A stretch of DNA of 64,000 bases from Octopus sinensis. Taxonomy: Eukaryota. The stretch lies in assembly GCF_006345805.1 (NCBI RefSeq), contig NC_043011.1, positions 35,724,464 through 35,788,463 of the forward strand, written 5' to 3'. Every line of letters begins with the position of its first letter. Positions within the stretch are counted from its first letter, which is position 1. Made by a program: the position numbers and the translations under genes. A model generated the notes under the pieces. The model worked only from the letters and a program-made list of their open reading frames with translations, was not told where the DNA came from and made no database searches. Shown here piece by piece: positions 494 through 63,000 of the stretch.

Positions 494-862
494 AAAGATT
501 ATTTGCAAACATAACATGGCAGTCCTGGTTTAGGACGAATGTTGCTGTAATTTAGCTCCATGAGACATCGTCTCCAGCTGGCCACGCGACACGATCTGTG
601 TCCTTATATTTTCGAACAAGGGAATCTAGTATCCCCACTCAGCTCAAAACAATATCTGTGTATCGCGATTTCCGGGTTATTTCCCTTCATCAGCACAGAA
701 TAATTGTTCGCACAGAACAATTGTTCGTATAGCCAGCTGGAGACGATGTCTCCTGGGGCTAAATTACAGCAACATTCGTCCTAAACCAGGACTGCCATGT
801 TATGTTGGCAAATAATCTTTATTCGAAAGTACTGTTGCTGAATATCTCTCGTTGTGAGATTT
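494..862. repeat. Fold-back (inverted-repeat) element, PLE pseudo-LTR-like, copy 1
   Basis: ~90-bp arms 494-583 and 731-820 are reverse complements; homologous copy at 28801-29082; hammerhead motif in the spacer. Confidence 0.8.
655..699 (-). ncRNA. Type I minimal hammerhead ribozyme motif
   Basis: Minus strand: tctgtg CTGATGA a-ggg-aaataa-ccc-g GAAA tcgcga TA cacaga; 6-bp stem I, intact core, palindromic stem III (ATCGCGAT). Confidence 0.85.
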
Positions 863-995
863 ACAAATAATAATTTTCTAATTTACACAATATTATTTAT
901 TATAGAATTATTGTAAAATGCAACTGTGTTGGCTAACACTCGTTGAGATGAAAGCTTTAGAATTGCCTATGTACTGGAATTCGATAGTGGGTTAC

Positions 996-1070
996 CTGAC
1001 AGCGGTGTACCTCAGCTACTATTTCAAAAAGGCTCATGCTATCACTAGAAGATACTATATGAATAGGTGC
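996..1070 (-). CDS. Candidate host exon (phase 0-0, APIHIVSSSDSMSLFEIVAEVHRCQ)
   Basis: cag acceptor, cag|gtaac donor, 75-nt open frame; weak pyrimidine tract; could be chance. Confidence 0.2.
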
Positions 1071-1242
1071 CTGTGTTTATGAAATTTTAGGAATCTACTT
1101 TGTCTCACCTAGCGCATTTTGCTTCCACGTTTTTATGATACAAAACTACAACTTAACTTAGTCTTTGTTGAAGTAAGTCTAATTAATAGACAATATGAAC
1201 AAGGCTGCAAAGTACCTCAGCATAAGTCTCTTCGATCTAAAC

Positions 1243-1531
1243 CAGTGGTTCCCAAACTTTTTCGGGATGCCCTCCCTTTGACACCCAGGTCACATTCCTA
1301 CCGTCCCACCCCGACTAACCATCACAGAGAGATACCTCTTTCTGAAGCAAACTCGAAGCAACTGTATTTCACAAATAAAACTTAACCTATTGAACCCATT
1401 ATTTTGTTGTTTTTACATGAATTGCCACTCCATTATCGCCCCAATTTTTACATGAATCGCTACCCCATAAGCGCCTTGCTTTTCTTCAACGCCCCCTTGG
1501 AACATTTCACAGCCCACTTTGAGAATCACTG
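1243..1531. mobile_element. hAT (Charlie-like) MITE
   Basis: TIRs cagtggttcccaaa / tttgagaatcactg; 8-bp TSD atctaaac/atctaacc. Confidence 0.8.
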
Positions 1532-1707
1532 ATCTAACCTGTCCTAGTACTAAACTACAGCAACTTCTTGAGAATTATTTCCATGTCAACTGACATACAG
1601 TCAGATACAAATTCACTGATCGATAAACATAAGCTCCGTTTATAATATGCAAATTTATTCCACCAGTCCTTCTTACAATGCTTTAGTCGTATGTAGTGAT
1701 TTCCTTA

Positions 1708-1831
1708 AGTCAATTACATCGAACCCAGTGCGTAACTGATACTTAATTTATCGATCCCAAAAGGATGAAAAGCAAAGTCGACCTCGGCGGAATTTGAACT
1801 CAGAACGTAACGGCAGACGAAATACTGCTAA
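1708..1831 (-). mobile_element. SINE family C fragment (tRNA-derived, Meta-domain-like core)
   Basis: Matches the gagttcaaattccgccgaggtcgactttgcc core of the other copies. Confidence 0.8.
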
Positions 1832-1856
1832 CGAGCGGGAAGAAATGTCACCAGAC

Positions 1857-1887
<31 letters not shown>

Positions 1888-1980
1888 TGTATGTATGTAT
1901 GTATGTATGTATGTATGTATGTATGTATGTATGTATGTATGTATGTATGTATGTGTGTGTGTGTGTGTGTGTGTGTATGT
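1857..1980. repeat. (TATG)n/(TG)n microsatellite
   Basis: Directly visible. Confidence 0.95.
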
Positions 1981-2812
1981 ATATAGAGTGTCTGAAAATA
2001 TGTATATACACATTGAAGCATTATAAAGTTAGTATATGTTACAACGCATTCCCCAAATTTGACTCTATTTTGAGAATATAATTTTTGTTTAACGGACACC
2101 TCTTTTGAAACTGATGGCAGTTCTAATCTAGGCACCGCTGGTAATGCCAAGCAATGGTTTCACAAGCATCAAGAAAGATTTCATTTGCTATTTCTGCATA
2201 GTCTCGTTCAGTAGCTGCCTTTAATTCGTCGAGCGTTGCCGGTTTTGTACCGTAAAACTTTGTCCGATAAATACACAGGTTATTCTATTGAATATCTTCC
2301 TAGCAAAAGCTCACCAAAGTAGATCGTCTCATTACTATGGTAGAGAAGGAGTGCCACATGCTACTAGAAGTCCTCTTGAATGCTTGGCGTGATAAATTGC
2401 CGTAGAACCGTTGAAAAAGACATGTTCCAAGTAATTCTTTTGAAGATAAGATACACCGACGCCTGATAAATTAACATGGCGTTCTTCTGTGATATGAGAA
2501 TATTCAGGTCCTAAGTAGTGCAACTGTGGAAGTTATTCGAGCCATTCATTTAATTTAAATGTAAGCTCTTCATTCCAAAAGTGTTTGTTGGAGAGTGTGC
2601 ATCTTCTACATATCTAGCGACGTACAACTTGCAACACTCTAAACGTCGTTCGAAACATCTCCACTGAGAGAATGAACTATTCTTTCAATGAAAATTTTCC
2701 ACTGATATTGCATCAAAATGCGTTGGACATTTGATTGTGAGATTCCTATCACAGAAATCGCTTTCTGCACAGAGATTCTGGAACTCTATGCAATATGTTT
2801 ATAATACCTTTT

Positions 2813-3236
2813 GGATCTTTTTGGTTTGAAAGGCAGTTTTTTCTAGCGGTGTCATATGAAATTGTCACCCATAATTATGACCCTAGTATTGATCTGTTGC
2901 ATTTCAATCTGTTTTAGGGTTAGGGTTAGTTAGGGTTAGGGGTATGGGAAGGGTATCTTTTTTTCTTCAGAAATGTAAATAAACCCAATCTGTTTCTTAA
3001 ACGAGAGACATATTCATACGGCACAGAAAGTTTTCACCTCAGTAGACGTCATTGATTGGTTGAAATTGCAGAAATTGAAGTAAAAGACAACAAATATCTT
3101 ACAAACTATAGAATTTTCTCAATAAAGCCAAGAGATATAGATGTTTTATAATCACATTCTACCAGTATACGAAGTTAAAAGTGTTTAGTTTCGTGGAAAT
3201 TATTTTAAAAAGCTGCCGTTCAAACCGAAAAGAGCC
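2813..3236. mobile_element. MITE with ~28-bp GG-start TIRs, 8-bp TSD and internal TTAGGG repeats (Merlin-like?), copy 1
   Basis: TIR ggatctttttggtttgaaaggcag / ctgccgttcaaaccgaaaagagcc; TSD tacctttt; second copy at 15899-16316. Confidence 0.85.
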
Positions 3237-3496
3237 TACCTTTTCTTTCATTTTATGGAGTTCGATGTCCGCATTCTTTCAGAATGTTTCTTCTGGGCAT
3301 TCTGAACAATTCCGTCTGCTTCAAACTTAGCACTAATTCAACTGGGGGGTAATCTGCGAAGATGAATCTATTTGCAACTCTCTCCTAAGCTGCATTTTCA
3401 CATCGAGTGCAATTTTCAAACTTTCACTAGTTCTTCAGGAAAAAAATTCCCTTTGTCCAAAGCTTAGTGTTTCTCCTTTCATTATTTCCATTGGGT

Positions 3497-3938
3497 TAAG
3501 GCAGCAAGCTGGCGGAATCGTTAGTACGTCGGACAAAATGTTTGGTGATATTTCTTACGTTAGCACGCCGGGCAAAATGCTTAGCAGTATTTCGGCTGCC
3601 GCTACGTTCTGAGTTCAAATTCCGCCGAGGTCAAATTTGCCTTTCGTCCTTTCGGGGTCGATTAAATAAGAACCAGTTAAGCACTGGGGTCGACCTAATC
3701 GACTTAATCCGTTTGTCTGTACTTGTTTGTCCTCTCTGTGTTTAGCCCCTTGTGGGCAGTAAAGAAATAGGTATTTCGTCTGCCGCTACGTTCTGAGTTC
3801 AAATTCCGCCGAGGTCGACTTTGCCTTTCATCCTTTCAGAGTCGATGAAACAAGTACCAGTTAAACATTGGGGTTGATGTAATCACTTAGCCCTTTCCCC
3901 ACAAAGTTCCAGGCTTTCTGCGTAGAGTAGAAAGGATT
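3497..3938 (+). mobile_element. SINE family C dimer (tail A unit + tail B unit)
   Basis: A-box-like tggcggaatcgttag, B box gagttcaaattcc, core repeated; TSD-like atttccattgg/acttccaatgg. Confidence 0.85.
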
Positions 3939-4377
3939 ACTTCCAATGGATTAAATCTAAAAAGAAATGAAAACCAAGCGAGCTTTCAGCATTTGAAGTG
4001 TGTATACAATTTTTAGAGACGCCCTATATATGTACATATATGTTTGCATGTATGAACCATGTGTATATCAGCAATCTGTCTATAAATTTTTGTTCGACAC
4101 AGAAATATAGCCTGCTCGTGTCGTAATCTATGTAAGAAACCATAAAAGAAAAAATTTGGAGAAGCGTATTTTTCTTTTCTTTTTATTAATTTAATTTTAG
4201 TTTTCTTTTGTTGGAAAGCATTAAATGGATTCCGTTTCTACATCCTTTTCAAATGAAGATGAGAATTCGCGGTTTAATGAAAGATTATACATAAAAATAT
4301 CAAGACGGGTTACAGCCAAGAATAACCGGATTATGTGTAACAGCGAGTTGACTATAAAGATGTTAAAAACCATAGCA

Positions 4378-4424
<47 letters not shown>

Positions 4425-4551
4425 TACATGCACACACACATATATGTAGATAAAAAATGCCCCTACAATGTTTAATACATACATACATACATACATACAT
4501 ACATACATACATACACGCGCATACATATGTATGCATGTATACAAATATTCG

Positions 4552-4552
4552 C

Positions 4553-4637
<85 letters not shown>

Positions 4638-4650
4638 CCTATCTATCTAA

Positions 4651-4718
<68 letters not shown>

Positions 4719-4720
4719 CT
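4552..4720. repeat. (TATC)n microsatellite
   Basis: Directly visible. Confidence 0.95.
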
Positions 4721-4814
4721 GGTTCAGCTTCGTTATTTTATGCAAATGGAACATGGATAACACATCTATTCATTGTGCCCTCGCGCACACACGCACACAT
4801 ACACATTATAAATT

Positions 4815-4884
4815 TCCCCCTCTGACGAATTTCTAACAGGAAACACCTTACACATATTAGCAAATGAAACACGTGTAATGGAGA
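4815..4884 (+). ncRNA. Hammerhead motif with long stem II and degenerate stem I
   Basis: CTGACGA (4822-28), atttctaa...ttagcaaat stem II, GAAA cacgtg TA; stem I tccccct/atggaga has 2 mismatches. Confidence 0.7.
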
Positions 4885-5091
4885 CTAAATAATGCCAAAA
4901 AATCCCCACTTTTCTGTTTCGTTATACAGTAACTCTGCAAATAATATTTCCATGATTCTCAATTTCAATATGTATTTTGACTAACGTACAGCAGCAGCCG
5001 TAGGTATATATTGATTGTAATAATGAAATAAGCAGACGAGCTTCAAGAGGAAACATCTAGAATTTACCCTCACTACCTACATTATATATAC

Positions 5092-5452
5092 GGAAGCGCA
5101 ATGGCTCAGTCCTTATTGCAGCGGACTCGCGGTCTTAGGATCGCAGTTTCAATTCCCGGACCGGGCGTTGTGGGGTGTTTATTGCGCAAAAACACCTAAA
5201 GCTCCACGAGGCTCCGGCACGGGGTGGTGGCGAACCTTGATATACTCTTTCACCACAAATTTCTCTCACTCTTTCTTCCTGTTTCTACTGTACTCTGTAT
5301 TTCAAAGGGTCAGCGTTGTCACACTCTGTGTCACGCTGAATCACCCCAAGAACTCTACGTTAAGGCTACACGTGTCTGTAGAGTGCTCGGCCACTTGCAT
5401 GTTAATTTCACGAGCAGGCTGTTCCGTAGATCGTCGTAACCAATGGAGTGCC
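5092..5452 (+). mobile_element. SINE family B (tRNA-derived head)
   Basis: tRNA-like head; body homologous to 6713-7065 and 23545-23830. Confidence 0.8.
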
Positions 5453-5529
5453 ACATTATGTGTGTATATATATATATCCTCTCTCTCTCTCTCCTTTGCT
5501 TCTCTTTCTTTTCTTTTCTCTCTTTCTGT

Positions 5530-5995
5530 CACGTGACTGCTGGCCGAAATCTGCCTTTCAGCTTCTCACCAGCGTGTGTTACATCGTGTTTTCGTCCGCC
5601 GCTATAGGCATCGCCGATAAGGCTCCTTTCCAATGCGCCAGAGAAAAAATTTGTTTGCTTGTATCAGTCGTAAGACACTTGTTGTTGTTTTCACCGTTAA
5701 TGCTTCTGTATTCCATTATTGTTTTTGTTTTTTTATATTCGTCCCTTTTGCTGTCCTGGTGTCCGTATGCATTCGATCCTTCTTCCAGGAAATCTACGCT
5801 CCCAGCTTAGTTTTTCTAATGCTCGTTGCTTAGTTTTTCTTGGAGGGCTGGCGCGTGATCTAGTAATCTCAAGATTAATCAGCCGAAATTACTACGATGA
5901 TCCGGTTCTTGACTGAAGACTGAGGGTTTCGAATGTCCTGTCCGTGTTTATTGTATCGTCTTCTGAGTACGTTCTTGTCCATGTTGTATTTTTCT
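5530..5995 (+). repeat. Dispersed repeat with conserved structured core
   Basis: 5816-5990 homologous to 58760-58977 (minus). Confidence 0.7.
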
Positions 5996-6007
5996 ACATA
6001 CCTTAAC

Positions 6008-6023
6008 ATTATATATATATATG

Positions 6024-6076
<53 letters not shown>

Positions 6077-6283
6077 TATATATGGGTGTATATATATATA
6101 TATATGTGTGTATGTATAGATATATATATATATAGTGTATATTATATATATATATATATGTGTTGTGTATATATATATATATATATATATAATGTATGTA
6201 TATATATATATATGTATATATATATATGTATATATATATATGTATATATATATATTGTTATATATATATATGTGTTATATATA

Positions 6284-6325
<42 letters not shown>

Positions 6326-6337
6326 TATATATATAAT

Positions 6338-6386
<49 letters not shown>

Positions 6387-6452
6387 TGTATATATATATA
6401 TATATGTGTATATAATATGTATATACATTTTATAGATATATGTATATATATA
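6008..6452. repeat. (TA)n-rich microsatellite
   Basis: Directly visible. Confidence 0.95.
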
Positions 6453-6712
6453 TTTAGCTCGCGCCTCTGTGTGTGTGTACGTTTATATATATATCCAAAC
6501 ATTGAATACATCCACATGCACACACAAAATCAGAAGGATTATGATTTTAATTTTCATGAGTTCTTGGTATAGAGTTACAAACATAAACATCTTTTACGAA
6601 GTATTAGCCAGAGATGTAAATTTTATGTATACTTATACGCAAAAATTATACATTTGCATATATACGAACATGAATACATATGCATGTATATAGCTATATA
6701 CATACATACATC

Positions 6713-7180
6713 GTGGCATTCCGTCGGTTACGACGACGAGGGTTCCAGTTGATCCGATCAACGGAACAGCCTGCTCGTGAAATTAACGTGCAAGTGGCTG
6801 AGCACTCCACAGATACGTGTACCCTTAACGTAGTTCTCGGGGAGATTCAGCGTGACATAGTGTGACATAGGTACAACGGAAACAGGAAGTAAGAGTGAGA
6901 GAAAGTTGTGATGAAAGAGTACAGCGGGGTTCACCCCGCCTCCTGCCGGAGCAACGTGGAGCTTTAAGTGTTTTCGCTCAATAAACACCCACATCACCCT
7001 GTCTGGGAATCGGAAGCGCGATCCCACGACCGCGAGTCCGCTGTCCCTACCACTGGGCCATTGCACTTCACATGCATACATAAAATGCACATATTTACAT
7101 AGACATCGCCCGGCCTGAGATTCGAGCTCGCGATCCCTCGACCGCATGTCCGCTGCTCTAACCACCTGACCATGTACCTC
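6713..7180 (-). mobile_element. SINE family B with a second tRNA-like head (7105-7180)
   Basis: Heads tggcccagtggtaggg and tggtcaggtggttagagcagcgg; shared body. Confidence 0.8.
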
Positions 7181-7489
7181 CACATAACATGCCTAAGGTA
7201 TGCATATGGTTAAAAAGTTCTAGACTGTAGCGGTGATCTCGGGAAATGTCCCTTTACAGATGTTGTATGTTAAAAAGAAACCTCATACCTCAGAGCTAGA
7301 CGAAATGAAATCCTCTGATATAGTTTCTATCAAAAGTATCTTAAAGTATATTAAGTATATGGCAATGATAATTTGCAAAACGTTCGGAAGACAAATCTAA
7401 TGTTTCATATCATTGTGACACCCATGACATAATAGTATCACCAGATATATGGGTATGCATCTGTGTCTCTGCCTGTGTAAGCATTTATT

Positions 7490-7770
7490 CGTATGCATAT
7501 ATATATATACATGTGTGTGTCTCTCTCTATATATGTGTGTGTATATATATATGTAAATGTATATATATATATGTATATATATATACATGTGTGTGTCTCT
7601 CTCTATATGTGTGTGTGTGTATATATATGTAAATGTATAATATATATTTATATATTATATATATTATATACCATATATATATGTATGTATATATATAACA
7701 TACATATATATACTCGTATATATATACCCGTATATATATATATTATATATATATATACGTATATATATAC

Positions 7771-7826
<56 letters not shown>

Positions 7827-7940
7827 GTGTGTGTGAACATATATATGTGCGAACATACATGTCATTGTGTGTGTTTCTGTGTGTGTGTGTGTGCGTGTGT
7901 GTGTGTGTTTCTGTGTGTGTGTGTTTCTGTGTGTGTGTGT
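7490..7940. repeat. (TA)n/(TG)n microsatellite
   Basis: Directly visible. Confidence 0.95.
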
Positions 7941-8532
7941 GGAACAGATGAAATTACTTGAATTACTCGAAAAATTTTCTGCAAATGAGTAGTTTGCAGA
8001 AGCCGAATGGATTAGGTTACGGCTAAATGGTAAACGGGGAAATTACACAGGAGATTGATTATACGGGAAATTGAATTTTCTTTTGAAAACGTCTACTGTT
8101 AAATTGATATGGAAGTAACTGACACCAATTTCTTTGGTTTTGACCTCAAATATGACATGGATAACCACTTGTCTTGCCACGTGTTGAGATGTCTAAAAAT
8201 GAATTTATATCCAATTTATATACTGGCTATTATCGCAAAGCAGATAAAATAATCACTTTAAGCGAGTTTCAGTTCTACCTTGAGGGCTATTTCATTTAAA
8301 TTACGTCGCTAAATAGTCTTCAGAAAAATGCACGAATTTTTAAAATAGCCATCTTTTCCTATTCCTCTACATATTTGAACTTGAATGTTTAAGTACGAGA
8401 TTGGTTCTTCTACCTTATAATGCTATATTATAATATTGTTGTTGCGGCCCATTTTACAAAACGTCCTTTGGTTTTGTTTGAAATCGATCAAATTTCTTTC
8501 ATATAAGTTAAAATGCAGTCGAACTTTCTCCC

Positions 8533-8632
8533 NNNNNNNNNNNNNNNNNNNNNNNNNNNNNNNNNNNNNNNNNNNNNNNNNNNNNNNNNNNNNNNNNNNN
8601 NNNNNNNNNNNNNNNNNNNNNNNNNNNNNNNN
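8533..8632. other. Assembly gap (100 N)
   Basis: N run. Confidence 1.
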
Positions 8633-8861
8633 TTATTTAACCAACTCCCAAAAAGATGAAAGGTAAATATGTAATTACTTCTGATTTGGGCAAAAACCCA
8701 GCAATTTTGAGGGAGGTGAGTTAGTTAATATAATCGACCCCCTTTGTAGACTGGCCCCTCATTTTATCGACCCTTGTCAAGTTTTGGTTAAAAGAATAAA
8801 AAAATTTACTTGGCGGGATATGAAGTCGGAACGCGAATAGCTGGAACAAATATTCATGTCT

Positions 8862-9582
8862 ACTCTAGGCATACAGCCAGAAATTTTAGGGGAGGAGGCC
8901 AGTCAATTAGATTGACCCCAGTATGCAACTGGTACTTAATTTATCGACCCCGAAAGGATGAAAGGCAAAGTCGACCTCGGCGGAATTTGAACTCAGAATG
9001 TAAAGACAGACGAAATACCTCTTTCTTTACTACCCACAAGGGGCTAAACACAGAGAGGACAAACAAGGACAGACAAACGGATTAAGTCGATTATATCGAC
9101 CTCAGTTCGTAACTGGTACTTATTTAATCAACCCCGAAAGCATGAAAGGCAAAGTCGACCTCGGCGGAATTTGAACTCAGAACGTAGCGGCAGACGAAAT
9201 ATCGCTAAGCATTTCTCCCGGCGTGCTAACGTTTCTTATTTCTTTATTGTCCACAAGAGGCTAAACATAGCGGGGACAAACAAGGACAGACAAAGGGATC
9301 AAGTCGATTACATTGATCGCAGTGCTAACGTTTCTGCCAGCTCACGGCCTTAGTTGGAACAAATATTCTTTTCTACTCTAGGCACAAGGCCCGAAATTTT
9401 TGGGGATGAGAGGCCAGTCGATTAGATTGACCCTAGTACGCAACTGGTACTTAATTTATCGACCCCGAAAGGATGAAAGGCAAAGTCGACCTCGGTGGAA
9501 TTTGAACTCAGAAGGTAAAAACAGACGAAACACCGCTAAGCATTTCGCCCGGCGTGCTAACGTTTCTGCCAGCTCGCCGCCT
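8862..9582 (-). mobile_element. SINE family C multimer cluster
   Basis: Three cores with A and B tails; target sequence tagctggaacaaatatt repeated three times. Confidence 0.85.
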
Positions 9583-11318: not shown

Positions 11319-12052
11319 GGTTCCGGGTGATTCGGGGTTAACCACAGTAAATAAGGTACTCAATACATAGCAGAGTAAAATTAATTTATTATATAGAAGG
11401 AGCTTCTACAGGACTAGAACTGTTTCATTCAAGAGAAATCTTCAGGAATCTAGTTAACAAGATTGTATTGGCCTTTATACATTTAGGCAGGTTTAAAGGG
11501 TGTTGGTGGGGGACTTTTTGGGGGTAGGCATAGCGCAAAATATCATACTTGGGGGAGTGGTCAGGGAGTCAGTGTTAAATTAGATAGAAGAATAAATAAA
11601 AAATAAAAAAATAAAAAAAATAAAAAAATATATATATAGAAAAAATGGGGGAGTAGAGTGTTAGGTAAATAAGGAAGATTCTCACCTCTACTTATACTAT
11701 GCACATATGTATACATATATACACACAATACAAACATATATACATATACATACACACATACTACACACACACATATATACATATATATACACTTACACAT
11801 ACATATACATATCTACACATACACATATATGTATACATACACCACTCACATGCATAACGTATACACACATGTAATATACACACACGACACACATACATAT
11901 ACACACAGAAAAATATATATACACATACAACACATACTCACATACACGCATACACACACATATCCACACACCACACATGCACACACACAGCACACTAGTC
12001 CCTATATACACATATATACACATACACACATATATACATACACACCATACAT

Positions 12053-13415: not shown

Positions 13416-13447
<32 letters not shown>

Positions 13448-13459
13448 ATATATATAGTA

Positions 13460-13780
13460 GTAACTGAAAAAAGGAATTTCGATTATCCCCACGTGGTGAG
13501 TTGAAATGTATATAAGAAATTAAAAATGGAAAATACGCACACTTACATAGTTTTAATATAATTTTTAATATATCGACCGGTTTCGCTATCGCTATTCATG
13601 ATATTATGTTTTACTTATTTGAATATGTATTTTTTCTTAAGAAGAAATTTTGTCCATGTAGTGTGTGATGAAATCTACGAGTGAATGATTTCACAAGTAG
13701 ATAAATAAGGGGAGGTAATTGGTTATCGTTATTATTGTTATTCTTGTGGGTAAGGGAGATAACTGTTCAGCTTTCTGTAA
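13460..13780 (-). repeat. PLE pseudo-LTR fragment related to 19530-20010
   Basis: Shared agttRtctcc(c)cttacccacaa and ccacgtg motifs; broken hammerhead atatc-ATGA...GAAA ccgg TC gatat at ~13569-13603. Confidence 0.55.
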
Positions 13781-13899
13781 TATATATGTACAGACAAAAA
13801 GCAAATTTCGGAAACCTTGTTTAGTGAGGGGATTTATGTACAGTGATGTAATCGTGAATTGAAATTTCTAAAAAAATAAAAGTTAGTTACGCGAGCATA

Positions 13900-14929: not shown

Positions 14930-15555
14930 CTAAAACAAGTGAGAATTTACAAAAAAAAAAAAAGAAAAACATAAGAAACAGATAAACATAACAAACAGAT
15001 ATATTAGTTTAATGCTCGGGAAGTGGGAAAGTCTTTTACATTTCGAGCCTGCGCTCTTCAACAGAAAGGAACACAGAAATAAACAGGGAGAGAAAATGAA
15101 AAAAAAGAAAGGTTTAGTGGCTAGCGATTTATCATGGCGAATGCCGGGCAGAGGGGTAAAAACAGAGTAAGAAGAAACGACAAATGGAAAAAGCAGAAAG
15201 TACAAAAAAGTTTAGAAAAGTTCTAAAGGTTCAAACGTCGTGGTGCATTGGAGCGACTTCTCATCAACGGTAGAATCCAGTGTAATCCATGGGTAGGAGA
15301 GGTGCAGCATAAGTGTAGGAGTTCGAGTGTAGGAGAGTAAAATGTCCAGGTAGAGAATCCAGGTACAATAGTCCGAAATGTAGAAGGTGTATAAAATCCA
15401 AGAAAAGTTCGAAGTGTTGTGAGGTAGAGACAGAATGAAACTGGTGCGACCACGTGAGCGTGTAATACATAGTGAGAATTTACAGAAAAACAAAAGACGA
15501 AGACGAGTGTCTAAACAACAAACAGGTCTATTGGTTTAACGCTCAGGAAGTGAGT
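14930..15555 (-). repeat. PLE-like repeat carrying the A6U hammerhead variant
   Basis: Homologous to 62890-63075; internal duplication of the aaacag...tttaacgctcaggaagtg block. Confidence 0.65.
15033..15068 (-). ncRNA. Minimal hammerhead-like motif, core CUGUUGA
   Basis: cttt CTGTTGA a gagc-gcag-gctc GAAA tg TA aaag. Confidence 0.6.
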
Positions 15556-18157: not shown

Positions 18158-18497
18158 AAGAGAGAGAACGTGTGCGGTGTGTGTGGAGTGTGTACATGTT
18201 TGAAACACCTAGTGTTGAATATATACGAAGAGGAGGAGGAGGAGGAGAAGAGAACGAGAGAGAGAGAGAAAGATAGTAAACGATGTGGGGGGAAAGGTGA
18301 TTTGCAAAAAGGAGAAAAAGAATTAAAGGTAAATGGCATTTAGTTTCATATATCAGAGTTTAATCTTCAGATCTAATCGACTTTTCGATTGGAAGTTTAT
18401 GTGTATGGACGTCAAACGTATAGAAGTAGGCATTTGTGAGTATTTATATGTACGAATCTACGTAAGTATATATATATATATACACTATTACAACGTC

Positions 18498-19211
18498 AAT
18501 ATCCCTCCACCCTTATAGAGTATGGAATAAAACGCGCCAAAGAACTAGACAACACTACACTGAAAACCACCCAACCTAACACCACACACAACCTCAAAAT
18601 ACTTCCATACATTTCCACCCACAACCCCAAAAATATCGAAGCATACACCACAATCATACAAAACCTCAGTCTACTGTCAACAGACCCAAAAATGAAAAAC
18701 ATTATAAATACACACAAAATCCTCAAATGCAAAAGGCAACACAAATCTTTAAAAAAACTCTTGACAAATGCCAACTTCACACACCACATCCACCCCCAAC
18801 AGTAAAAAAATGTGCACGCTCAAACTGTGGTACCTGCCCCTTTCTACTTGAAGGCTCTGAATTTACCTTCAAACAAGGTACGAAGTTTAAAATCAAGACT
18901 AACTTCTCCTGTTCCTCCGAGAACCTTATCTACGTTCTCACATGCGCTGGTTGCCAACATAATTATGTTGGACAAACGAGTCTCCGTTACGTAAACGAGT
19001 AACGGTGCATAAAGAACAATAAATCTCCCGGAATACCGACAAATTCCACTGAGTGACCACTTCGACTCATGTGCTAAAGACTTAAACCCCAAATTCTATA
19101 TATTCCCCTTCTACCAATGTAAAGACGGGATCACCACAGGAGAGAATTAACAAGGAGAATATCTTTATTGAAAAATTCCAAACACAACTTAATATGCAAA
19201 CTCCTCGTTGA
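18498..19211 (+). pseudogene. Penelope-like element RT C-terminus / Cys-rich linker / GIY-YIG endonuclease remnant
   Basis: LPYISTHNP, KKCARSNCGTCPF, FSCSSENLIYVLTCAGCQHNYVGQT; frameshifted. Confidence 0.85.
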
Positions 19212-19840: not shown

Positions 19841-19881
19841 TATTCTTGACAAGTCATACAATGACGAAAACCGGTTGAATA
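19841..19881 (+). ncRNA. Decayed hammerhead motif in the PLE 3' region
   Basis: tattc TTGACAA gtcat-aca-atgac GAAA accggtt gaata; perfect stems I and II, core mutated by transitions. Confidence 0.6.
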
Positions 19882-20590: not shown

Positions 20591-20638
20591 GTTTCCGATG
20601 AAGGGATATAATAAATATCCTGGAAACAGCTGTAAGAC
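20591..20638 (+). ncRNA. Minimal hammerhead motif, core CCGAUGA
   Basis: gttt CCGATGA ag ggatat-aataa-atatcc tg GAAA cagctg TA agac; within a ~340-bp block (20365-20700) between (TA)n tracts. Confidence 0.7.
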
Positions 20639-22036: not shown

Positions 22037-22512
22037 TTCAGCAAAATTTAGATTCAGATGAATATGGTACCTAAGTTAAAGGCACCAGAATTTTATATGG
22101 TATTATCCATATAAATCAAATGGGGTGATTATAATCAAAATAAGCAACAAGGATATCCAAGGTCGAGCAATCTTCAGCCACATATAGAATTTTTCAATTA
22201 AACGGGCAATGCACGTTCTTATACTTATTTCATTTGCCAACATTACAAAGAGGGTAGATATATAGACAGAGAGGTTGATTTCATCATTAAGAACATGATG
22301 GTAGTATGTTCATTCTCCGTCTGTAGATTTTATCATTGAGTTCATTTTGTTATTTAGAGCTATCAGTGGGGAGGGATTTTTATTCTTGGTTGAATGGAAG
22401 AAGATTGCTCGACATTTTAAAACTAATGTAATACTTACAGTGTTTAATAAAATGAGGTAGCATGAAACAAATGTACTACTCTACCTTGGATATCCTTGTT
22501 GCTTATTTTCAT
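22036..22512. repeat. Partially inverted PLE-like repeat with split hammerhead
   Basis: 22137-22163 inverted with 22483-22509; 22162-22175 inverted with 22400-22413; GAAA caaatg TA ctac at 22464-79. Confidence 0.65.
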
Positions 22513-23322: not shown

Positions 23323-23357
23323 ATTTCTGACGAAGATCCCCACTCGAAACGTTAAAT
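23323..23357 (+). ncRNA. Minimal hammerhead motif
   Basis: attt CTGACGA a gat-cccca-ctc GAAA cg TT aaat; stem II partly decayed; in repeat 23240-23455. Confidence 0.6.
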
Positions 23358-33370: not shown

Positions 33371-33472
33371 AGATAAAAAAAAAGAAAACAATTCTAATCG
33401 AAAACTGTCATGCATAGTACGGAATTTTGTCAGTGAACAGGTCGCGGTCTCAAAGCGACGAAAATATTTTGA

Positions 33473-35154: not shown

Positions 35155-36197
35155 GAAAATATTTTGACAAATTAAATTTAAATGTTGAAGTGAATTTAAC
35201 GGATTTTGTGTGTTTCTTAAATGGCTTATAAACACCTTCCACACTGCAATTGTTTTCGTTCCAGCACACGATCTCAGATCAGGTCATTTGCTATGCAAGT
35301 ACATCTCCGTAACAAATGTATGTGTTTCCTCTTTCATTATGTCAATCTACGTACAACGTAACAGACATCATTAAACTACTGCAACGTAACTGTCACATGC
35401 TTTGATTGAAATCCAAATCTCTCAGTTGCACTGTCTCATGTACTTCTCGCATATCTCAGCTCTCTTCTGTCTCACATACATCGCACGTCTCTTGGCGATA
35501 TACTGCTACCAATTTCAACACGAAAAGTTGTGTCTGTACTTTGTCTAGTCATTCCCCGCTATCACTAATAGCAAAAGGACTTCCAAATACTTTTGGTTTA
35601 TAGTCTCTTTAAATTAAATGTAATTTATATATCTCTTTCTCTGCTAACACCTCTTACTACCACCAAATATTTGATAAGAATTTCGCCTCCCACTTTCTCT
35701 TCTAGTCATGAACTAGAAAATTCAGCATTCACAAATGCGTTTCTTTGGTGAATACATATCGAAACTAGGATAAACTATAAAATGGAATTTTGTGGCTAAG
35801 CTTCTTTTAAAGAAGGAAAATATTGAGCTTTAAATACCATAAACAACAGATAAATTTCAGATGTAATGGTGGATTTTCAATTTCAGCAGAAGCACACGTC
35901 ATAAGCTCGTTAAGGTTAAACTACTATCACACACCCGCCTCCAATTTTTCATATCTATTTGTTCTATCATAATAATGCTACCCCGGTCAGATAATGAAAA
36001 ATGCAAGCCATTCACCCTGAAAAATTGAGCAGTCAAATGGTTATTCAGATAAGTATCATGGCTTTTAATAAATAAATATAATTATTCTTTTATTCGTTTA
36101 CTTTTTTCAGTCGTTAAACTGCGGCCATGCTGGAGCACCAACCTCAAGAATTCTAGTCGATCTGGAGCCTATAGGCGACTGTAAAATACGTGCAGTG

Positions 36198-36965: not shown

Positions 36966-37168
36966 CAGCACGGAATTTTGTCAGTGATCAGGTCGCGGTC
37001 TCATAGCGATGAAAATATTTTGGCAAATTAAATTTATATGTTGAAATGAATCTAACTGATTTTGTGTGTTTCTTAAATGGCTTATAAACATCTTCCACGC
37101 AGCAATTGTTTTTGTTTCAACACACGATCTCAGATCAGGTCACTTGCTATGCAAGTACATCTCCGTAA
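36966..37168 (+). repeat. G3:C8-hammerhead repeat, copy 2 (empty site)
   Basis: Colinear with the two halves of copy 1. Confidence 0.85.
36977..37027 (+). ncRNA. Hammerhead motif with reciprocal G3:C8 core
   Basis: tttgtca GTGATCA g gtcgc-ggtctcata-gcgat GAAA atat TT tggcaaa. Confidence 0.7.
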
Positions 37169-38064: not shown

Positions 38065-38893
38065 TTGCAAGCAGGGGAGTGACTCCCTACCATCTTCCAG
38101 CCACGAGACCAACAAACCGTACGGTTTCGACCTCGCTGTGGCCATCCTCGGTGGTGGATGCCGTCCGCTTGACATAGCAGTAGATCACTCCAGATCGCAA
38201 TATATAGAACACACAGGCACACACACACAATAAAGTACTATGAAATGATTTAACAGTCAATAGAGTACAATGTAGGTTTCCCCCTCAATGAATGTTGCAT
38301 ACACATGAAACTCTCTTGTATCCAAGGTACTGATGTTTTAGGTACCAGTACCGTTGCATGATTTGCTGTTAGAAAGTACAGAACTGGACCGGGAACACAT
38401 ACCACAAAGCATCTTACTTGACGCTCTTATAGTTTCGCTGATCTATTACCCTGAAATGTAAAATAGTACATCTCAAACGATGCGTACTGAATTTTTAGAA
38501 TTGTAATCCTTAGGCTTAAAAAAAAATTTACTAATATTTGAGTGCCTTGAAAGCGTGTATAATTTTGATCTACACAAGTATGATTAATGCGACAAATTAT
38601 ACATCAATTTACTTAAAGTTTGATTTAAGAAAATCATTCCATGAAAATATCCCAGTAGATATTTTTTTAAATTGTTATATGAATCGTATCAGAATTTATT
38701 TTCATTCGGTTTCCTATGCGTTACGAAGTTAAAAAAGAAAAAACTGAGAAGACCTGGCTTAGGTTTTTAACTTTCAGTTATATCATAGTTTTATTTTTAT
38801 ATTTTCAGATCGATAGAACTGATAACATTAGCATGCTAACGTCAAGAATTAAGAGTTATATCGTATATAGCATGTCCTGTTCATAGACCTTAC

Positions 38894-51321: not shown

Positions 51322-51365
51322 GTAACCCTCTGTTTCTTTTACTTGTATTCTAATTCATTAGGAGT

Positions 51366-54300: not shown

Positions 54301-54786
54301 CCTGGCAGTGCTACCGAGAAGAGCTACCCGTTCGGGATAAGCTCTACAGACACGGCTCGAGAAACACGGGGCCGACCTGCCCGAGATGCGGTCAGAGCGA
54401 CGAAACCGTTCTGCACGCACTCGTGCAGTGTCCAACAATTTCCGACCTGTCGAACAACTGCTGTCACATGTGGGACGAGTCGGTTTATCAGCTGAGTCTA
54501 TCGTCAATATTGTCACGCCTCCTTCCTTCAAACGGGAAGGAAGAGCTATTTTCATCATCCTTGTGGCTATGGCGAAAGAATGTATCTGGTGGACGCGTCT
54601 GAAAGGATTGGAGACAAACACTTTCCTCTCTGGTCAACCTCTCATCAACTTCTTCAAGTACCACTTGAAAAGGAAAGTGAGAGGAGAGAGGCAATTTTGT
54701 CTAGCGAATGTTTAAAAAAAGATAGGTGAATGTAGCAAGGATGGCATGTATGAATGACGAAGCCACCATCAGCATAATCTTATGAA
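51366..54786 (+). pseudogene. LINE ORF2: AP endonuclease, reverse transcriptase, C-terminal zinc finger; disrupted
   Basis: NARGL, SET, GDWN, TDH; KSPGLDG, KAFDRVDH, RQGCPLS, YADD; CPRC...HALVQC. Confidence 0.93.
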
Positions 54787-56077: not shown

Positions 56078-56824
56078 CAAAAACAAAACAATCGAACAAA
56101 ACAGGTTTACAAACATTGAAAAGGAATATATTAAAAAAAACAAAAAAAAAAAAGAAGAAAAAAAGCAAGAAAGATTTCATTCATAGAAAATAATTCTACT
56201 GACTTGATCTCTGATTGGGGATTATGCACATTCATCATCATTAGAAGCTTATTAGGTAAAAACTAATCCACTAAAACTGTCAAGTTGTGGAAGTGGAATG
56301 AGTGCATATTTTGTAAGAGCGTGCTTTTCTTGTCATCGGAGCCTTTTCTACTGTTTAATATAATTTGGATTTCTATTTCTAAACTGTTTATAATTACGTT
56401 TACAGTTCGCTACGAAATAACGAGTTTTTTTCTAGTTTTGTTTCTCGGATTTCTCTTCAGCGAAGAAAGTGTCGGTTCCTATTCTAGAAGCAAAACTATT
56501 TTAGTGGAATTAAAAAAAAAAAACCCATCAATGGCGTGTTTATGCATGTATATGTATACACATGTGAAACTAGCTTTTGCAATTTTTTTTCCTGGCTCTC
56601 TTTGTTTTCTTTCTTTCCTCTTCCTTCTTTCCTCTTCCTTCTCTTCCTACTCTCTCCTGGTCTTTCCCATAGAATCTGACGAAAGACAATGTCTGAAGCG
56701 TTGTACATTTTTTCTATAACTGTTTTCCTTCTCTAAGTTTCGATCCCCACGTTCAAAATTACAGGCCTTGTGTCTATAAATTATTTACATTTGACGGATA
56801 TTTGTCCTCATCTTGTTTGTTGTT

Positions 56825-56870
56825 AACACAACGTTTCGGCTGATATACCCTCCAGCCTTCATTAGGTGTC
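56825..56870 (-). ncRNA. Hammerhead motif, left arm (G5A)
   Basis: gacac CTAATGA a ggctg-gagggtatat-cagcc GAAA cg TT gtgtt. Confidence 0.7.
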
Positions 56871-56993
56871 TTGCAGAAATTTTGAACCTGGGTTTTCATT
56901 CCTAAGGTATTTTTCGATGTTATCATCATCATTATTGTTATTATTATTATTATTATTATCATTATTATTATTGTTGTTGTTGTTGTTGTTGTT

Positions 56994-57068
56994 CAGGTCA
57001 CTGCTTGGAATCGAACTCGGAATCTTGGGGGTTAGTAGCCCGCGCTCTTAACCACTGCGCCATATGCC
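56994..57068 (-). promoter_or_regulatory. tRNA-derived Pol III internal promoter (not a functional tRNA)
   Basis: A box TGGCGCAGTGG, B box GAGTTCGATTCC; acceptor stem does not pair. Confidence 0.75.
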
Positions 57069-57197
57069 TGTGGGCATACTAACGCCAAGATTACGAGTTC
57101 GATTCCAAGCAGTGACATGGACACTAATAATAATAATAATAATAATAACATCGAAAAATACCTTAGGAGTGAGAACCCAGTTTCGAAATTTCCGCAA

Positions 57198-57244
57198 GAC
57201 ACCTGAAGAAGGCTTGGGGGCTAAATTAACCAAAATGTTGTATT
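57198..57244 (+). ncRNA. Hammerhead motif, right arm (decayed)
   Basis: gacac CTGAAGA a ggct...aacc AAAA tg TT gtatt. Confidence 0.5.
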
Positions 57245-58094
57245 AACAACAAACAAGATGAGGACGAATATCCGTCAAATGTAAATAATGTAAATAATTT
57301 ACAGAATTCCTCATCTCTTAAATATAGAACTTGTGTCTATGTTAGTGAATAAGTTCAAGGTTTTTCAAAGGTTTTCAAACCGTGAACATCAACTTCGTCT
57401 CCATACTAATTTTTATCTTGTCTAATATAACCATTCAATTTCTTTTAAGGATTTGAAAGGGCTTTGGCATCTTCTTACAGCAGATCGCACAATAGCATAG
57501 AGGATCCATTGTTGGCACTTGAAGGTTGTTTGTTTTTTTTTGTCCCACTGTAATATTTGCAGTCTGTTTAATGGGTTGATAAAGGAACGATAAAAAAAAA
57601 CGCAGCATGTGAGCGTGCTCTTCTGTATAAATACGTAAAAAGAAAGCATTTTGAAAACACCGTGCTTCTGAAACAAATAAATGGATAAACTTGACCATAA
57701 ACTAAGACATATTGAATAATGAGGTCTTAGATAACAATACCCCACTAAGCAAAATAAGAAGGTAATAGCTGGAACGCCTTTAACTGGCACTCTTTTCAAT
57801 CAGGGCTGAAGGCCAGCTGATCAACATCAACCATTACTGTTGAATTGTATGAATATATATGATGATACTTAAGGCGTATAATATATTTGGGCCATTCACG
57901 AGGTAATTTCATGCATTTCATTGTATGTATTTTCGTGTGTATATTTGTGTATGTGTATGAGAATTTGTGTTTGTGTGGCGTCGATATACGTTTAGAAATA
58001 TTTTTAATGCATACGTATAGTGGTTAATATGTGTATATGATTGAATGGAATGTAAAATGGCCGAATGAATCAGGGTATTAAACTAGTTGCCTAC

Positions 58095-59029: not shown

Positions 59030-59071
<42 letters not shown>

Positions 59072-60331
59072 CGATGGACATCTTTTAGATTCCGCCTACC
59101 AAATTCATTCACAAGATGGGTGCCCAAGTTGCCAGAATGACTTAGATCATCAGTCACTTTGACTGAGATTGTCATAAATTTAACAACACCTAATACAACA
59201 AGGTACATGCCATAATACCATTGACGAAGGAGCGTTTACTAACTGGCGCAGCCTACTAGAAACATCAGTCAGGTCTGCATCATTTCATATATATTCTTTA
59301 TAATAAATATTTAAGAAAGCATTCGAGAATGTTGACCTGAACAGGCTGCATTCACACACACACACACAAAAGAAGAAGATAGGTGGAACGCCATTGATTA
59401 GAGGCCTCTTCGATCATGTCTGACCTGCGGTTAAACTTCAAAACCAACAACAACAATGAAGATAAGGCTAATGATGCTAAATTGCAGCCTTCATTAAAAC
59501 AACTTTTTAATGAAGGCGACAGTTTTAATGAAAACGGCAACAATAAAATTTAAACAAGAAAGTGAACGAGATCCTCCCATCCCCCATACACTTCCTTTTC
59601 ACACGCTATTAGTCGGTTTTTCTTTCTGACCCTACCCTGCGTTTTTCACTTATCATATTTTCTACATAATGACGCGACGCTTATGTGAAACATTATCCAA
59701 AAATAGCAATTTAACTAGAAGATTGTTCTAATTATTTTAACGATACAATTTTCTTTCTCTCTGAAGTACATTTATTTATTTTTACATTATCGTTCTTGAA
59801 TATAGGACATAGAACATTTTATATAATTATAAATGTGATTGAAAGAAATTCAGAGGAAGAAATACTCTCAGATAAATGAAAACACATACGGGCACACACA
59901 CACACACACAAATACACATACACACACACATACATACGTATATACACACAAATGTTTATGGAAAATAACTCTTCCTTGATGTATGTCTATTTTACACATT
60001 CGCAGACAATACAGCAAACACAAACACATACACGCATACACACACACACACACACACACAACACACATACTTACACACACACAAAATGTCTGGATATAAT
60101 CAAGATGGGTGAAATTTTACTCATATATATCTTCAAAAGAATACATTTAATTAGCGCTCACTCACACTCTCACACATTGCACAAATACTGCGTTGAGGTA
60201 CATATATATATATACCTAAGCATCTATGAGTGTATATATTTGGTGTGTGTGCCTATATATGCATGTGTACAAATAATATATATATATGTGTCTATATTAT
60301 ATAATATGAATATATGATAATTATTTATAAT

Positions 60332-60364
<33 letters not shown>

Positions 60365-60413
60365 GAGTATTGACACCATTAATAAGCAACCTCCTGTAAT
60401 ATATGGACAGACG

Positions 60414-60910
60414 AAGGCGGCGAGCTGGCAGAAACGTTAGCAAGCAGGGCGAAATGCTTAGCCGTATTTCGTCTGTCTTTACGTTCTGAGTTCAAATTCC
60501 GCCGAGGTCGACTTTGCCTTTCATCCTTTCGGGGTCGATGTAATCGACTTAATCCATTTGTCTGTCCTTGTTTGTCCCCTCTACGTTTAGCCCCTTGTGG
60601 GTAATAAAAAAATAGGTATTTCGTCTGCCGTTACGTTCTGAGTTCAAATTCCGCTGAGGTCGACTTTGCCTTTCATCCTTTCGGGGTCGATTAAATAAGT
60701 ACCAGTTACGCACTGAGGTCGATATAATCGACTTAATCCCTTTGTCTGTCCTCTCTGTGTTTAGCCCCTTGTTGGTAGTAAAGAAATAGGTATTTCATCT
60801 GCCTTTCATCCTTTCAGGGTCAATAAATTAAGTACCAGTTGCATTCTGGGGTCGATCTAGTCGACTGGCCCCTTCCCACAAAATTTCGGGTTTTGTGCCT
60901 AGAGTAGAAA
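60414..60910 (+). mobile_element. SINE family C trimer
   Basis: A tail, A tail, B tail. Confidence 0.85.
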
Positions 60911-61287
60911 ATAATATGTGAACGAAGTGAATGGCAAATAAAGAGCAGAACTCCAATAATATCAGCTAATACATAAACAAAAAATGTAGTGCCAATATAG
61001 TTAGGAATAGATCTTATCTTCGAAGCTCACAAACTGGTATTATTTCATTTATCTCCCTTGACAGCTCTTCTCTTTATATATTTTAAACGCCTATAGAACG
61101 AATATGTTTTTGTCTTCTAATTGCCAAGATAATAAATATAGCTTAATCAAAATTTTAAGCTCAATTTATTATATATATAAAATTTTAGTGCAGCTGTATT
61201 CACTCACCATGGCGACAAGCATCTCTCACTCGTGTGGTTGGTATTCGTAATTAGTGTTATAGTCTTTCTATTATTTATAGAAAGACA

Positions 61288-61850
61288 AAGGCTACGAGCT
61301 GGCAGAAACGTTAACACGCCGGGCGAAATGCTTAGCGGTATTTCGTCTTTCGTCTGCCATTACGTTCTGAGTTCAAATTCCGCCGAGGTCGACTTTGCCT
61401 CTCATCCTTTCGGGGTCGATTAAATAAGTACCAGTTACGGACTGGGGTCGATATAATCGACTTAATCCGTTTGTCTGTCCTTGTTTGTTCTCTCTGTGTT
61501 TAGCTCCTTGTGGGTAGTAAAGAAATAGGTATTTCGTCTGCCGTTACGTTCGGAGTTCAAATTCCGCCGAGGTTGACTTTGCCTTTCATCCTTTCGGGGT
61601 CGATTAAATAAGTACCAGCTACGCGCTGGGGTCGATATAATCGACTTAATCCGTTTGTCTGTCCTTGTTTGTTCTCTCTGAGGTTTAGCCCCTTGTGAGT
61701 AGTAAAGAAATAGGCATTTCGTCTGTTTTTACGTTGTTAGTTCAAATTCCGCCGAGGTCGACTTTGCCTTTCATCCTTTCGCGATCGATAAATTAAGTAC
61801 CTGTTGCGTACTGCGGTCGATCTAATTGACTGGGCCTTCCCCCAAATTTC
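61288..61850 (+). mobile_element. SINE family C trimer
   Basis: A tail, A tail, truncated B tail. Confidence 0.85.
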
Positions 61851-61892
61851 GATATTGCAAACATGCATTTCATTTGTGTATTTTGTTGGTAC

Positions 61893-62012
61893 CTACATTT
61901 TCACTTCTGCTTATAGAAGAATGGAACTTTGTTTCGCCTTCTAAAGCAAAATTTACAGTATCTCCACCTCTTATAACGATAGGGATAGTGTGCTTTCGTA
62001 AAATCCTTTCAT
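61893..62012 (-). CDS. Candidate host exon, phase 1-1 (ERILRKHTIPIVIRGGDTVNFALEGETKFHSSISRSENV)
   Basis: tctacatctag acceptor, tag|gtacc donor, 120-nt open frame. Confidence 0.45.
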
Positions 62013-62964
62013 CTAGATGTAGATAATGGTAACCACGGCGAATATTAAGCTTAAATTTGACACAATTTAAATAGACGCTTAATTAACCCTATACTTGTTC
62101 CTTTATAAATTTAAATGCATAACTGCGCACGTATTTACATCACATTATCAGTACAACTTTGAACAGTTTATGATGGACAATTCATTTAGCTATCGAAAAT
62201 ATACGCCATTCTATGAACTATAAAATATAATTACAATATGTACCACTTGATTCCCTATGCTGTCGAATACATTAAAATGTTAAATCATTTACAGTTATTC
62301 CTCAGAGAGTATTTGTAAGTACACATTTCGCAGTTCTATGAAATTAGTTCTTCAATTGATAAATTTCCGGGCACTACAATCGCAAAATGGCTTAGTGATC
62401 AGTTCTTATTATTACGTACCGAACTCGCAGTTATTTACCGAGAATAACATAAACGGTGGTGACATGTCACGAAATAAACAGACAAACTTCTAGTAAATGC
62501 CTAAATTATTTTTAATGTAAATTTAACAAAATTAGCAGTTGAATGATGGGGGTGGAAGTCCAAGGTAAATCCCTAACAATTAGGCACGGTCTAAATCTCT
62601 GTATCTACCGTATAAGCCATAAAAAGCCACATGGTCTCTCGTGTAATAGAAATAGAAGTAAAATCTTTTTCGAATAACATCCTACCGTTTTAAGAATAAA
62701 GGAAAGATACACTGGATAACAAATGTAGTACTTGAAGAGGGGGAAGGTGACATTACAGTTATAGAAAACAAGAAAAGAAGGTGATAAATGTATAGATATA
62801 TACGAGAGAAGAAACGGCTGGGACAGTATAAATATGCTATAGAAAAGTGGTGTTGGAAACTACGTATATATATAGGGAGAGTTTATGAAAAAAACAAAAG
62901 ACGAAGACAGGTGGTGTACAAAACAAACAGATGTATTAGTATAACGCTCAGGAATAGAAAAAGT

Positions 62965-63000
62965 CTTTTACGTTTCGAGCCTACGCTCTTCTACAGAAAG
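62965..63000 (-). ncRNA. Minimal hammerhead-like motif, core CUGUAGA
   Basis: cttt CTGTAGA a gagc-gtag-gctc GAAA cg TA aaag; in repeat 62890-63075. Confidence 0.65.

Follow-up and report, generated by a model that had tools for sequence, protein, structure and literature searches.

The window analysed here, a 64,000-nucleotide stretch of the Octopus sinensis genome (RefSeq assembly GCF_006345805.1, contig NC_043011.1, forward-strand positions 35,724,464 to 35,788,463), contains type I hammerhead ribozyme motifs, mostly minimal, which belong to many repeat families; stem III is commonly a palindrome, and an additional base often follows A9. Several families have an altered catalytic core, and these fixed core variants, which constitute the actual novelty, had been misread as decay in an earlier sequence-only reading of the window that listed about 15 hammerheads. 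Three families are linked to coding sequence for the GIY-YIG endonuclease of Penelope-like elements (PLEs), and insertion marks of the PLE type are present. The motifs are probably type I hammerheads in the terminal pseudo-LTRs (pseudo-long terminal repeats) of many PLE families, whose master copies would self-cleave their precursor RNA as palindrome-paired dimers, presumably with the help of a protein.

The window is part of a 2.72-Gb animal assembly with 36% G+C and plentiful microsatellites. A strict descriptor (CUGANGA, GAAA, palindrome and UH) retrieved a single window motif (core 693, minus strand) vs. none in 40 local dinucleotide shuffles. Six motifs, vs. a mean of 0.075 in shuffles, were retrieved when a single core mismatch was tolerated; one of the six (52616, minus strand) is probably a chance match inside a LINE coding region. 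A scored descriptor, in which positions 3 and 8 may form any Watson-Crick pair, stem II may be long and stem III full, returned 10 window motifs at a score of at least 9, vs. 0.1 in shuffles (10 shuffles); it was broadened only after inspection of the window, and the window count is thus flattered. Nine of these motifs were on the earlier list, the additional one being 38151 on the minus strand. The same descriptor, applied to 69 evenly spaced 10-kb stretches (690 kb), gave 40 motifs vs. 1.3 in shuffles, and 38 after discarding two simple-repeat matches. Enrichment over shuffled controls is seen in both data sets. At the sampled density, 0.55 motifs per 10 kb (0.35-0.78 by bootstrap), the whole genome would hold about 150,000 motifs (95,000-213,000), or about 106,000 if only the 27 motifs with no core mismatch are counted.

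The motif density of the window exceeds the genome mean by a factor of about 2.8 at most, and a resampled 64 kb reaches at least 10 motifs with P=0.015, a value itself flattered by the tuning of the descriptor. The population described as dense is dense yet unexceptional; a special hotspot was rejected, since the motifs are genome-wide. Hammerhead-bearing elements span about 5.4 kb of the window (8.5%), whereas short tandem repeats occupy 6.7 kb and a single SINE-like unit 4.2 kb, so the suggestion that much of the unexplained repeat DNA is a ribozyme radiation is not supported. In an Rfam scan of the window (E<=10), no hammerhead family appeared among the 150 of 237 matches listed, all of which are microsatellite-driven miRNA matches.

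The coordinates given in the sequence-only reading correspond to the outer ends of stem I and agree with the sequence, and 14 of its 15 motifs belong to repeated hammerhead families. Seven of them have their family form or come close to it (693-, 11445-, 13599-, 19846+, 20595+, 36984+ and 62996-, named here by core position and strand), and another seven are decayed or interrupted members (4822+, 15064-, 22400+, 23327+, 33433+, 56865- and 57203+). The remaining one, listed at 56671, is unsupported (three genome matches only, itself included), and 38151- had no second copy among the collected loci. At the family level, the type I anatomy is complete: a three-helix junction open at stem I, with U4-G5-A6-N7, A9, G12-A13-A14, A15.1-U16.1 and H17 in the usual hammerhead numbering, from which the fixed A6U and U4C families deviate at one base. 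Stem III is a short palindrome, as claimed, in all families except that of the motif listed at 11401, which has a full 4-bp stem III. The stems were also said to be unrelated between families, but those at 15033 and 62965 have stem II (GAGC/GCUC) in common with 23323. The canonical core CUGAUGA is present in 14/17 copies of the 693 family and in 31/38 copies of the 56865 family; 23327 has three related copies in 600 kb.

The 3-8 pair occurs in the window as C-G, U-A (19846), A-U (13599) and G-C (33433 and 36984), and in each variant the state extends through the family. U3 and A8 are found in 39/39 copies of the 19846 family, A3-U8 is kept in 31/32 copies of the 13599 family, and the G3-C8 family has G3 in 74/74 copies and C8 in 71/74. 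Likewise, C4 (U4C) is present in 18/21 copies of the 20595 family, and U6 in 36/37 copies of the A6U family (15064 and 62996). Within the 37 A6U copies, variation among subfamilies falls at N7 (A 21, U 9, G 4, C 3) and H17 (A 29, U 6, C 2, G 0), positions that hammerheads leave free. Because family copies were collected by similarity to the window copy, these counts describe the nearest subfamilies. The variants are family-wide states and not private decay: the motifs called 'broken' (13569) and 'decayed' (19841) both equal their own family form, and those at 33426 and 36977 have G3-C8 cores.

The unselected 690 kb contained five G3-C8 copies, or roughly 20,000 genome-wide, and 11 copies of A6U, the commonest family sampled (roughly 43,000 genome-wide). 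It contained no A3-U8 copy; a search of the genome itself for this variant gave 1,646 candidates, of which 40 copies were scored, with 93-100% identity. In a control that put no constraint on positions 3 and 8, Watson-Crick pairs made up 27 of the 30 matches in the 690 kb (21 C-G, four U-A and two G-C), and the other three were a single step from C-G; shuffles gave 2.0 matches per 690 kb, 0.3 of them Watson-Crick. Other variant hammerheads were noticed in the unselected stretches (L067:4926 and L068:1848 on the minus strand, L079:2543 and L042:8748 on the plus strand), and comprise A6C, a further U4C family and two additional U3-A8 families. One speculative observation concerns the 2-bp stem II of the A3-U8 motif (13585-13592, minus strand), which could pair between copies as a G-A mismatched duplex and perhaps stabilise a dimer.

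The link to PLE coding sequence is direct for the U3-A8, A3-U8 and G3-C8 families. In the window, the U3-A8 motif follows a PLE coding remnant (18482-19208) at a distance of about 640 bp, and the best named relatives of the remnant's protein are from Argonauta, oysters, mussels and Octopus. Longer copies of this PLE, about 98% identical, with partial tandems and inverted pairs, encode reverse transcriptase (RT), a Cys-rich linker and GIY-YIG; for one of them (L215), the Pfam GIY-YIG match has an E of 6.7e-4, under the gathering score. The A3-U8 motif terminates a second PLE, with a protein about 60% identical to that of the U3-A8 PLE. A PLE coding remnant was found within 1.5 kb at 19/29 U3-A8 loci and 23/29 A3-U8 loci, vs. 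a background of 9/69 10-kb stretches. Both families thus show the layout of endonuclease-bearing (EN+) PLEs, namely RT plus GIY-YIG at the C-terminus, upstream of the pseudo-LTR; for G3-C8, the GIY-YIG part alone of this layout was seen. Upstream of the motif, long G3-C8 copies continue for about 2 kb in sequence rich in microsatellites, and in 3/11 upstream extensions (L354, L355 and L360) the motif is collinear with a GIY-YIG C-terminus (Pfam E 4.7e-4, under the gathering score); in L360, an inverted pseudo-LTR is joined to it. In a tree that holds no named reference elements, the A3-U8 PLE and two U3-A8 PLEs, which have their stem III palindrome in common, group with some database proteins in a single supported clade (96/99), the order of A3-U8 and U3-A8 being left undecided (support 80/31). 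A Cys-rich linker between RT and endonuclease is present in PLEs of the window type. A Cys-rich zinc-finger linker is a trait of the Neptune and Nematis clades, but the tree, with no named reference elements, assigns these PLEs to neither.

The sequence-only reading had placed two motifs downstream of GIY-YIG remnants. Only the remnant at 18482-19208 was detected, a second one being found neither by tblastn nor by PLE profile or motif scan in the window; 19846 belongs to it, and 20595 is a separate insertion past a (TA)n tract. An apparent parent of the G3-C8 motif, a PLE lying 1 kb upstream of it in L124, was also rejected: only 1/30 copies of that PLE had the motif, its own hammerhead is of another U3-A8 family, and the unique stretch in between is a separate inverted-repeat element.

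The G3-C8 motif is usually carried by a piece 205 bp long, which has target duplications of 9-12 bp and can end in two alternative ways at the 3' side. Examined by eye, 10/29 short loci are head-to-head pairs with a 55-60 nt tail on one arm only, and 7/30 loci have the target duplications. The PLE insertion marks (5' truncation, head-to-head inversion, one-sided tail and target duplication) were found for G3-C8, U3-A8, 693 and 56865. In the U3-A8, A3-U8, G3-C8 and A6U families, the short copies represent the ends of longer elements that have lost their 5' part. One-ended tails and inverted copies are known as PLE marks (10.1101/2021.04.23.441226). Inverted head-to-head copies, tails on one arm and target duplications of 9-12 bp lead us to infer that the remaining families derive from PLEs as well. 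A reading of the 693 element as a DNA-transposon MITE (miniature inverted-repeat transposable element) was set aside because its asymmetric arms fit PLE inversion; at 28785-29083, an inverted 693-family pair, truncated before the hammerhead, forms a near-perfect palindrome. As a side observation, long G3-C8 copies (L042:9050-9085 and L124:1648-1680, both minus strand, and L037) contain a branch-point-like motif, a pyrimidine tract and an AG that ends 14 nt before stem I, corresponding to sequence just upstream of window position 36963; many short copies start near that AG. The arrangement resembles that of Drosophila virilis Penelope, where an intron ends at helix I.

The proposed explanation is that hammerheads of PLE pseudo-LTRs have been scattered as mostly truncated or inverted copies, the families whose parents were not found being PLE ends too. 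Since the genomic copies hold the whole motif, they would have been copied from uncleaved RNA, as passengers that then decayed neutrally, and selection would have worked on master lineages for a cleavage-competent fold. Such selection may have kept the Watson-Crick 3-8 pair in all four forms and, in the A6U family, left N7 and H17 to vary while never admitting G17; 3-8 pairing together with an H17 that is never G would be the pattern that catalysis imposes. Cleavage by the variant cores is likely slow, a property that would be useful to an RNA with a second function as a template. A stronger version, with about 10^5 hammerheads in one genome and all four 3-8 pairs installed, all of them active, slow and protein-assisted, is put forward only tentatively, as less likely than not; it would make G3-C8 and A3-U8 newly recognised natural ribozymes and A6U an active core present in tens of thousands of copies, and it would imply that PLEs are selected for self-cleavage, at a rate tuned through the core. 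In the literature, minimal hammerheads of PLEs show weak cleavage when dimerised through the stem III palindrome (PMC4209133), and that of the anole PLE depends on the protein of the element; the partial recovery of cleavage by the C3G/G8C double change in this protein-assisted ribozyme speaks for the explanation (PMC11167929).

Several results weigh against this explanation. RNA-seq reads cover the G3-C8 element on both strands (1,648, 1,269 and 1,160 reads in three runs), and no read ends piled up at the predicted cut (37020/37021); RNA ends at the UH site had been proposed as a check. This test is weak, as the libraries were fragmented, about 6% of each run was used, the reads come mostly from other copies and their species label may differ from that of the window. 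In the anole as well, RNA ends were not found at the cut site, and catalytic mutations left PLE insertion in vitro unimpaired (PMC11167929). Changes at A6 and U4 reduce hammerhead activity (PMC3088659). The A3-U8 motif, with only a 2-bp stem II, folds no better than its shuffles (z 0.06). Isolated palindrome duplexes range from -0.2 to -16.4 kcal/mol across families, and those of G3-C8 and A6U are weak (-0.2 and -1.7 kcal/mol). No two-sided stem covariation was seen among copies within families. PLE coding sequence within 1.5 kb was absent for A6U (0/19), 56865 (0/19) and 20595 (0/14), and present at only 1/19 loci of 693 and 1/14 of 4822, so that no parents of these five families were found within that distance. 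Folding energies were otherwise uninformative, as only 20595 beat its shuffles, and did so through a non-hammerhead fold.

The chief rival to self-cleavage holds that the hammerhead folds of PLE pseudo-LTRs are retained as a signal for protein binding or RNA dimerisation, with cleavage vestigial and weak cores (A6U, U4C and a 2-bp stem II) fixed cost-free. It is the less probable of the two, but it would account for the dispensability of cleavage for insertion in vitro (PMC11167929), the poor performance of minimal PLE hammerheads in vitro (PMC4209133), the RNA-seq data without ends at the predicted site, and the rank of A6U as the commonest family (11 copies in 690 kb). It fits poorly with the 3-8 pair, a tertiary contact of the catalytic fold that is kept through double changes, and with the A6U copies, where all three permitted bases are used at H17 and G never occurs (37 copies).

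That most motifs are non-LTR retrozymes, i.e., short tandem units with circular RNAs mobilised in trans by PLEs, is improbable. Many copies are indeed just 200-500 bp, the A6U family includes a few direct tandems (L094), and retrozymes derive from PLE pseudo-LTRs (10.64898/2026.07.22.740005). Nevertheless, no tandem array built on a hammerhead was found in the window, copies are dispersed or inverted and seldom tandem, the short ones are truncated ends of longer elements, and no head-to-tail joint occurred among the RNA joints listed from the three runs, whose libraries are unsuited to circles; the retrozyme reading suggested earlier is weakened accordingly. Still less credible, to the point of being very improbable, is that the variant-core motifs are chance look-alikes picked up in amplified repeats by a loose descriptor. 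The descriptor was relaxed after the window had been seen, one lucky master can yield thousands of copies, and both G3-C8 and A3-U8 are represented by just one family here. However, 10 shuffles of the 690 kb gave no G-C or A-U match at a score of at least 10, both motifs occupy the usual position of a PLE hammerhead, and they have features that the descriptor does not require (G10.1, the extra base, and the palindrome in common with sister U3-A8 families).

Abundant and heterogeneous minimal hammerheads from PLEs have been described before (Cervera & de la Pena 2014, PMC4209133), and the octopus motifs resemble them in being type I with a short palindromic stem III, in the U3-A8 variant, in the extra base between A9 and G10.1, in the many families per genome, and in their mostly single dispersed copies with opposite-strand pairs 100-700 bp apart. 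The representatives in Fig. S3 of that paper include C3-G8, U3-A8 and one U3-G8 only, without G3-C8, A3-U8, A6U or U4C, and without any cephalopod. Its counts of about 2,000-9,000 per genome (about 9,000 in Xenopus tropicalis), like the more than 6,000 in Acropora millepora (PMC7229834), were obtained with different descriptors and lie far under the roughly 150,000 estimated here. Perreault et al. (2011, PMC3088659) described natural U3-A8 covariation, A6C, a 2-bp stem II and U4C in a viroid, as rare single examples, whereas such variants are here fixed in families of thousands; G3-C8, A3-U8 and A6U do not appear in the accessible part of that survey. The anole Poseidon PLE (Frangieh et al. 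2024, PMC11167929) has a comparable pseudo-LTR hammerhead and two RT start sites that give an optional tail; its G3-C8 is an engineered, partly active rescue, as opposed to the natural, family-wide state found here. In the accessible portions of the literature, G3-C8 was met only as an engineered mutant (PMC11167929, PMC3884650 and PMC8495972). Non-LTR retrozymes are likewise short non-coding type I units akin to PLE pseudo-LTRs (PMC7229834; 10.64898/2026.07.22.740005), but they are defined by tandem units, canonical hammerheads and circular RNAs, and tandem units were not seen in the window. A search of the literature, mostly outside subscription papers, found no natural A3-U8 or A6U hammerhead; it found no paper on octopus hammerheads either, and the words ribozyme and hammerhead are absent from a 2026 repeat annotation of Octopus vulgaris. 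An article by Lunse et al. from 2017 reportedly, to judge by its title, concerns numerous small PLE-associated hammerhead variants that cleave as dimers. The part that looks new is, thus, the high-copy natural core variants spanning all four 3-8 pairs.

In vitro activity of PLE hammerheads is low, and cleavage was dispensable for insertion in the one reconstituted system. Families in which both 3-8 partners have changed, and which were still amplified to thousands of copies, are natural evidence for a selected catalytic fold, and the core-variant families offer a ready test panel for the debated role of the hammerhead. Descriptors that fix CUGANGA would miss the variant families, and hammerheads in animal genomes may consequently be undercounted. 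Repeat annotation benefits as well, because the motifs mark short unclassified repeats as PLE ends.

Table. Hammerhead motifs of the window and the elements that carry them (positions in the window; a motif extends between the outer ends of stem I)
Feature	Position	Core	Strand	Remarks
Canonical type I minimal hammerhead	655..699	693	-	C3-G8, 6-bp stem I, palindromic stem III, A17
Inverted-pair element holding 693 hammerhead	486-881
Decayed hammerhead, long-stem-II family	4815..4884	4822	+	stem I 5' strand mutated; stem II internally deleted
Hammerhead with full 4-bp stem III (monomer type)	11401..11451	11445	-	one stem I mismatch vs. other copies
A3-U8 core variant	13570..13604	13599	-	5-bp stem I, 2-bp stem II, 6-nt palindrome, C17
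3' end of GIY-YIG PLE bearing A3-U8 motif	13415-13903
A6U-family hammerhead	15033..15068	15064	-	CpG-decayed palindrome
Element around 15064 motif	about 14931-15552			contains partial direct duplication
PLE coding remnant	18482..19208		+	5'-truncated, frameshifted; RT C-terminus, Cys-rich linker, GIY-YIG
U3-A8 hammerhead in 3' pseudo-LTR of young PLE	19841..19881	19846	+	extra A after GAAA
U4C-family hammerhead	20591..20638	20595	+	7-bp stem II, 8-nt palindrome
Dead remnant, long-stem-II family	22395..22480	22400	+	5' core piece on minus strand near 22160-22182
Decayed canonical-core member of superfamily sharing stem II with A6U family	23323..23357	23327	+
G3-C8 hammerhead, 5' half	33426..33471	33433	+	split by 1.7-kb LINE-like insert, 12-bp target duplication
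3' half of split 33433 G3-C8 element	35155..35312		+
G3-C8 hammerhead	36977..37027	36984	+	7-bp stem I, extra G, 5-bp stem II with G10.1, 6-nt palindrome, U17
205-bp PLE end holding 36984 motif	36963-37168
U4C hammerhead, absent from earlier list	38109..38157	38151	-	10-nt palindrome
Weak hammerhead-like motif, unsupported	56671..56707	56676	+	GAAG, unpaired stem I
Canonical-family hammerhead	56825..56870	56865	-	private G5A change; one arm of head-to-head pair 56777-57331
Decayed second arm of inverted pair 56777-57331	57198..57244	57203	+
A6U-family hammerhead	62965..63000	62996	-	identical to own subfamily; 210-bp element 62865-63075

The window also contains other mobile elements. The insert that sits inside the 33433 G3-C8 hammerhead (33472-35154) is LINE-like, with a 311-codon ORF1-like frame and an end at a polyadenylation signal. 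A near full-length broken LINE (49370-54700) has ORF1-like frames, an endonuclease (PF03372), RT (PF00078) and zf-RVT, and a Mariner/Tc1-like transposase remnant with helix-turn-helix (HTH) domains lies at 13986-14339. The SINE-like unit (180-240 bp) is very abundant, with 25 matches, and often forms partial tandems (e.g., 36197-36677, 61348-61831 and 3557-3942). Inverted copies of a 420-bp repeat with telomere-like (CCCTAA) units, 92% identical, are found at 2814-3236 and 15899-16315, and a 100-base assembly gap (N) begins at 8533. Loci L262-L290 contain a high-copy element of about 1 kb, likely a non-autonomous DNA transposon, whose inverted ends measure 190 bp and whose interior holds SINE-like fragments. 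Finally, words of the G3-C8 element were found in sequencing runs under six organism labels, and the family may, therefore, be common to several species.

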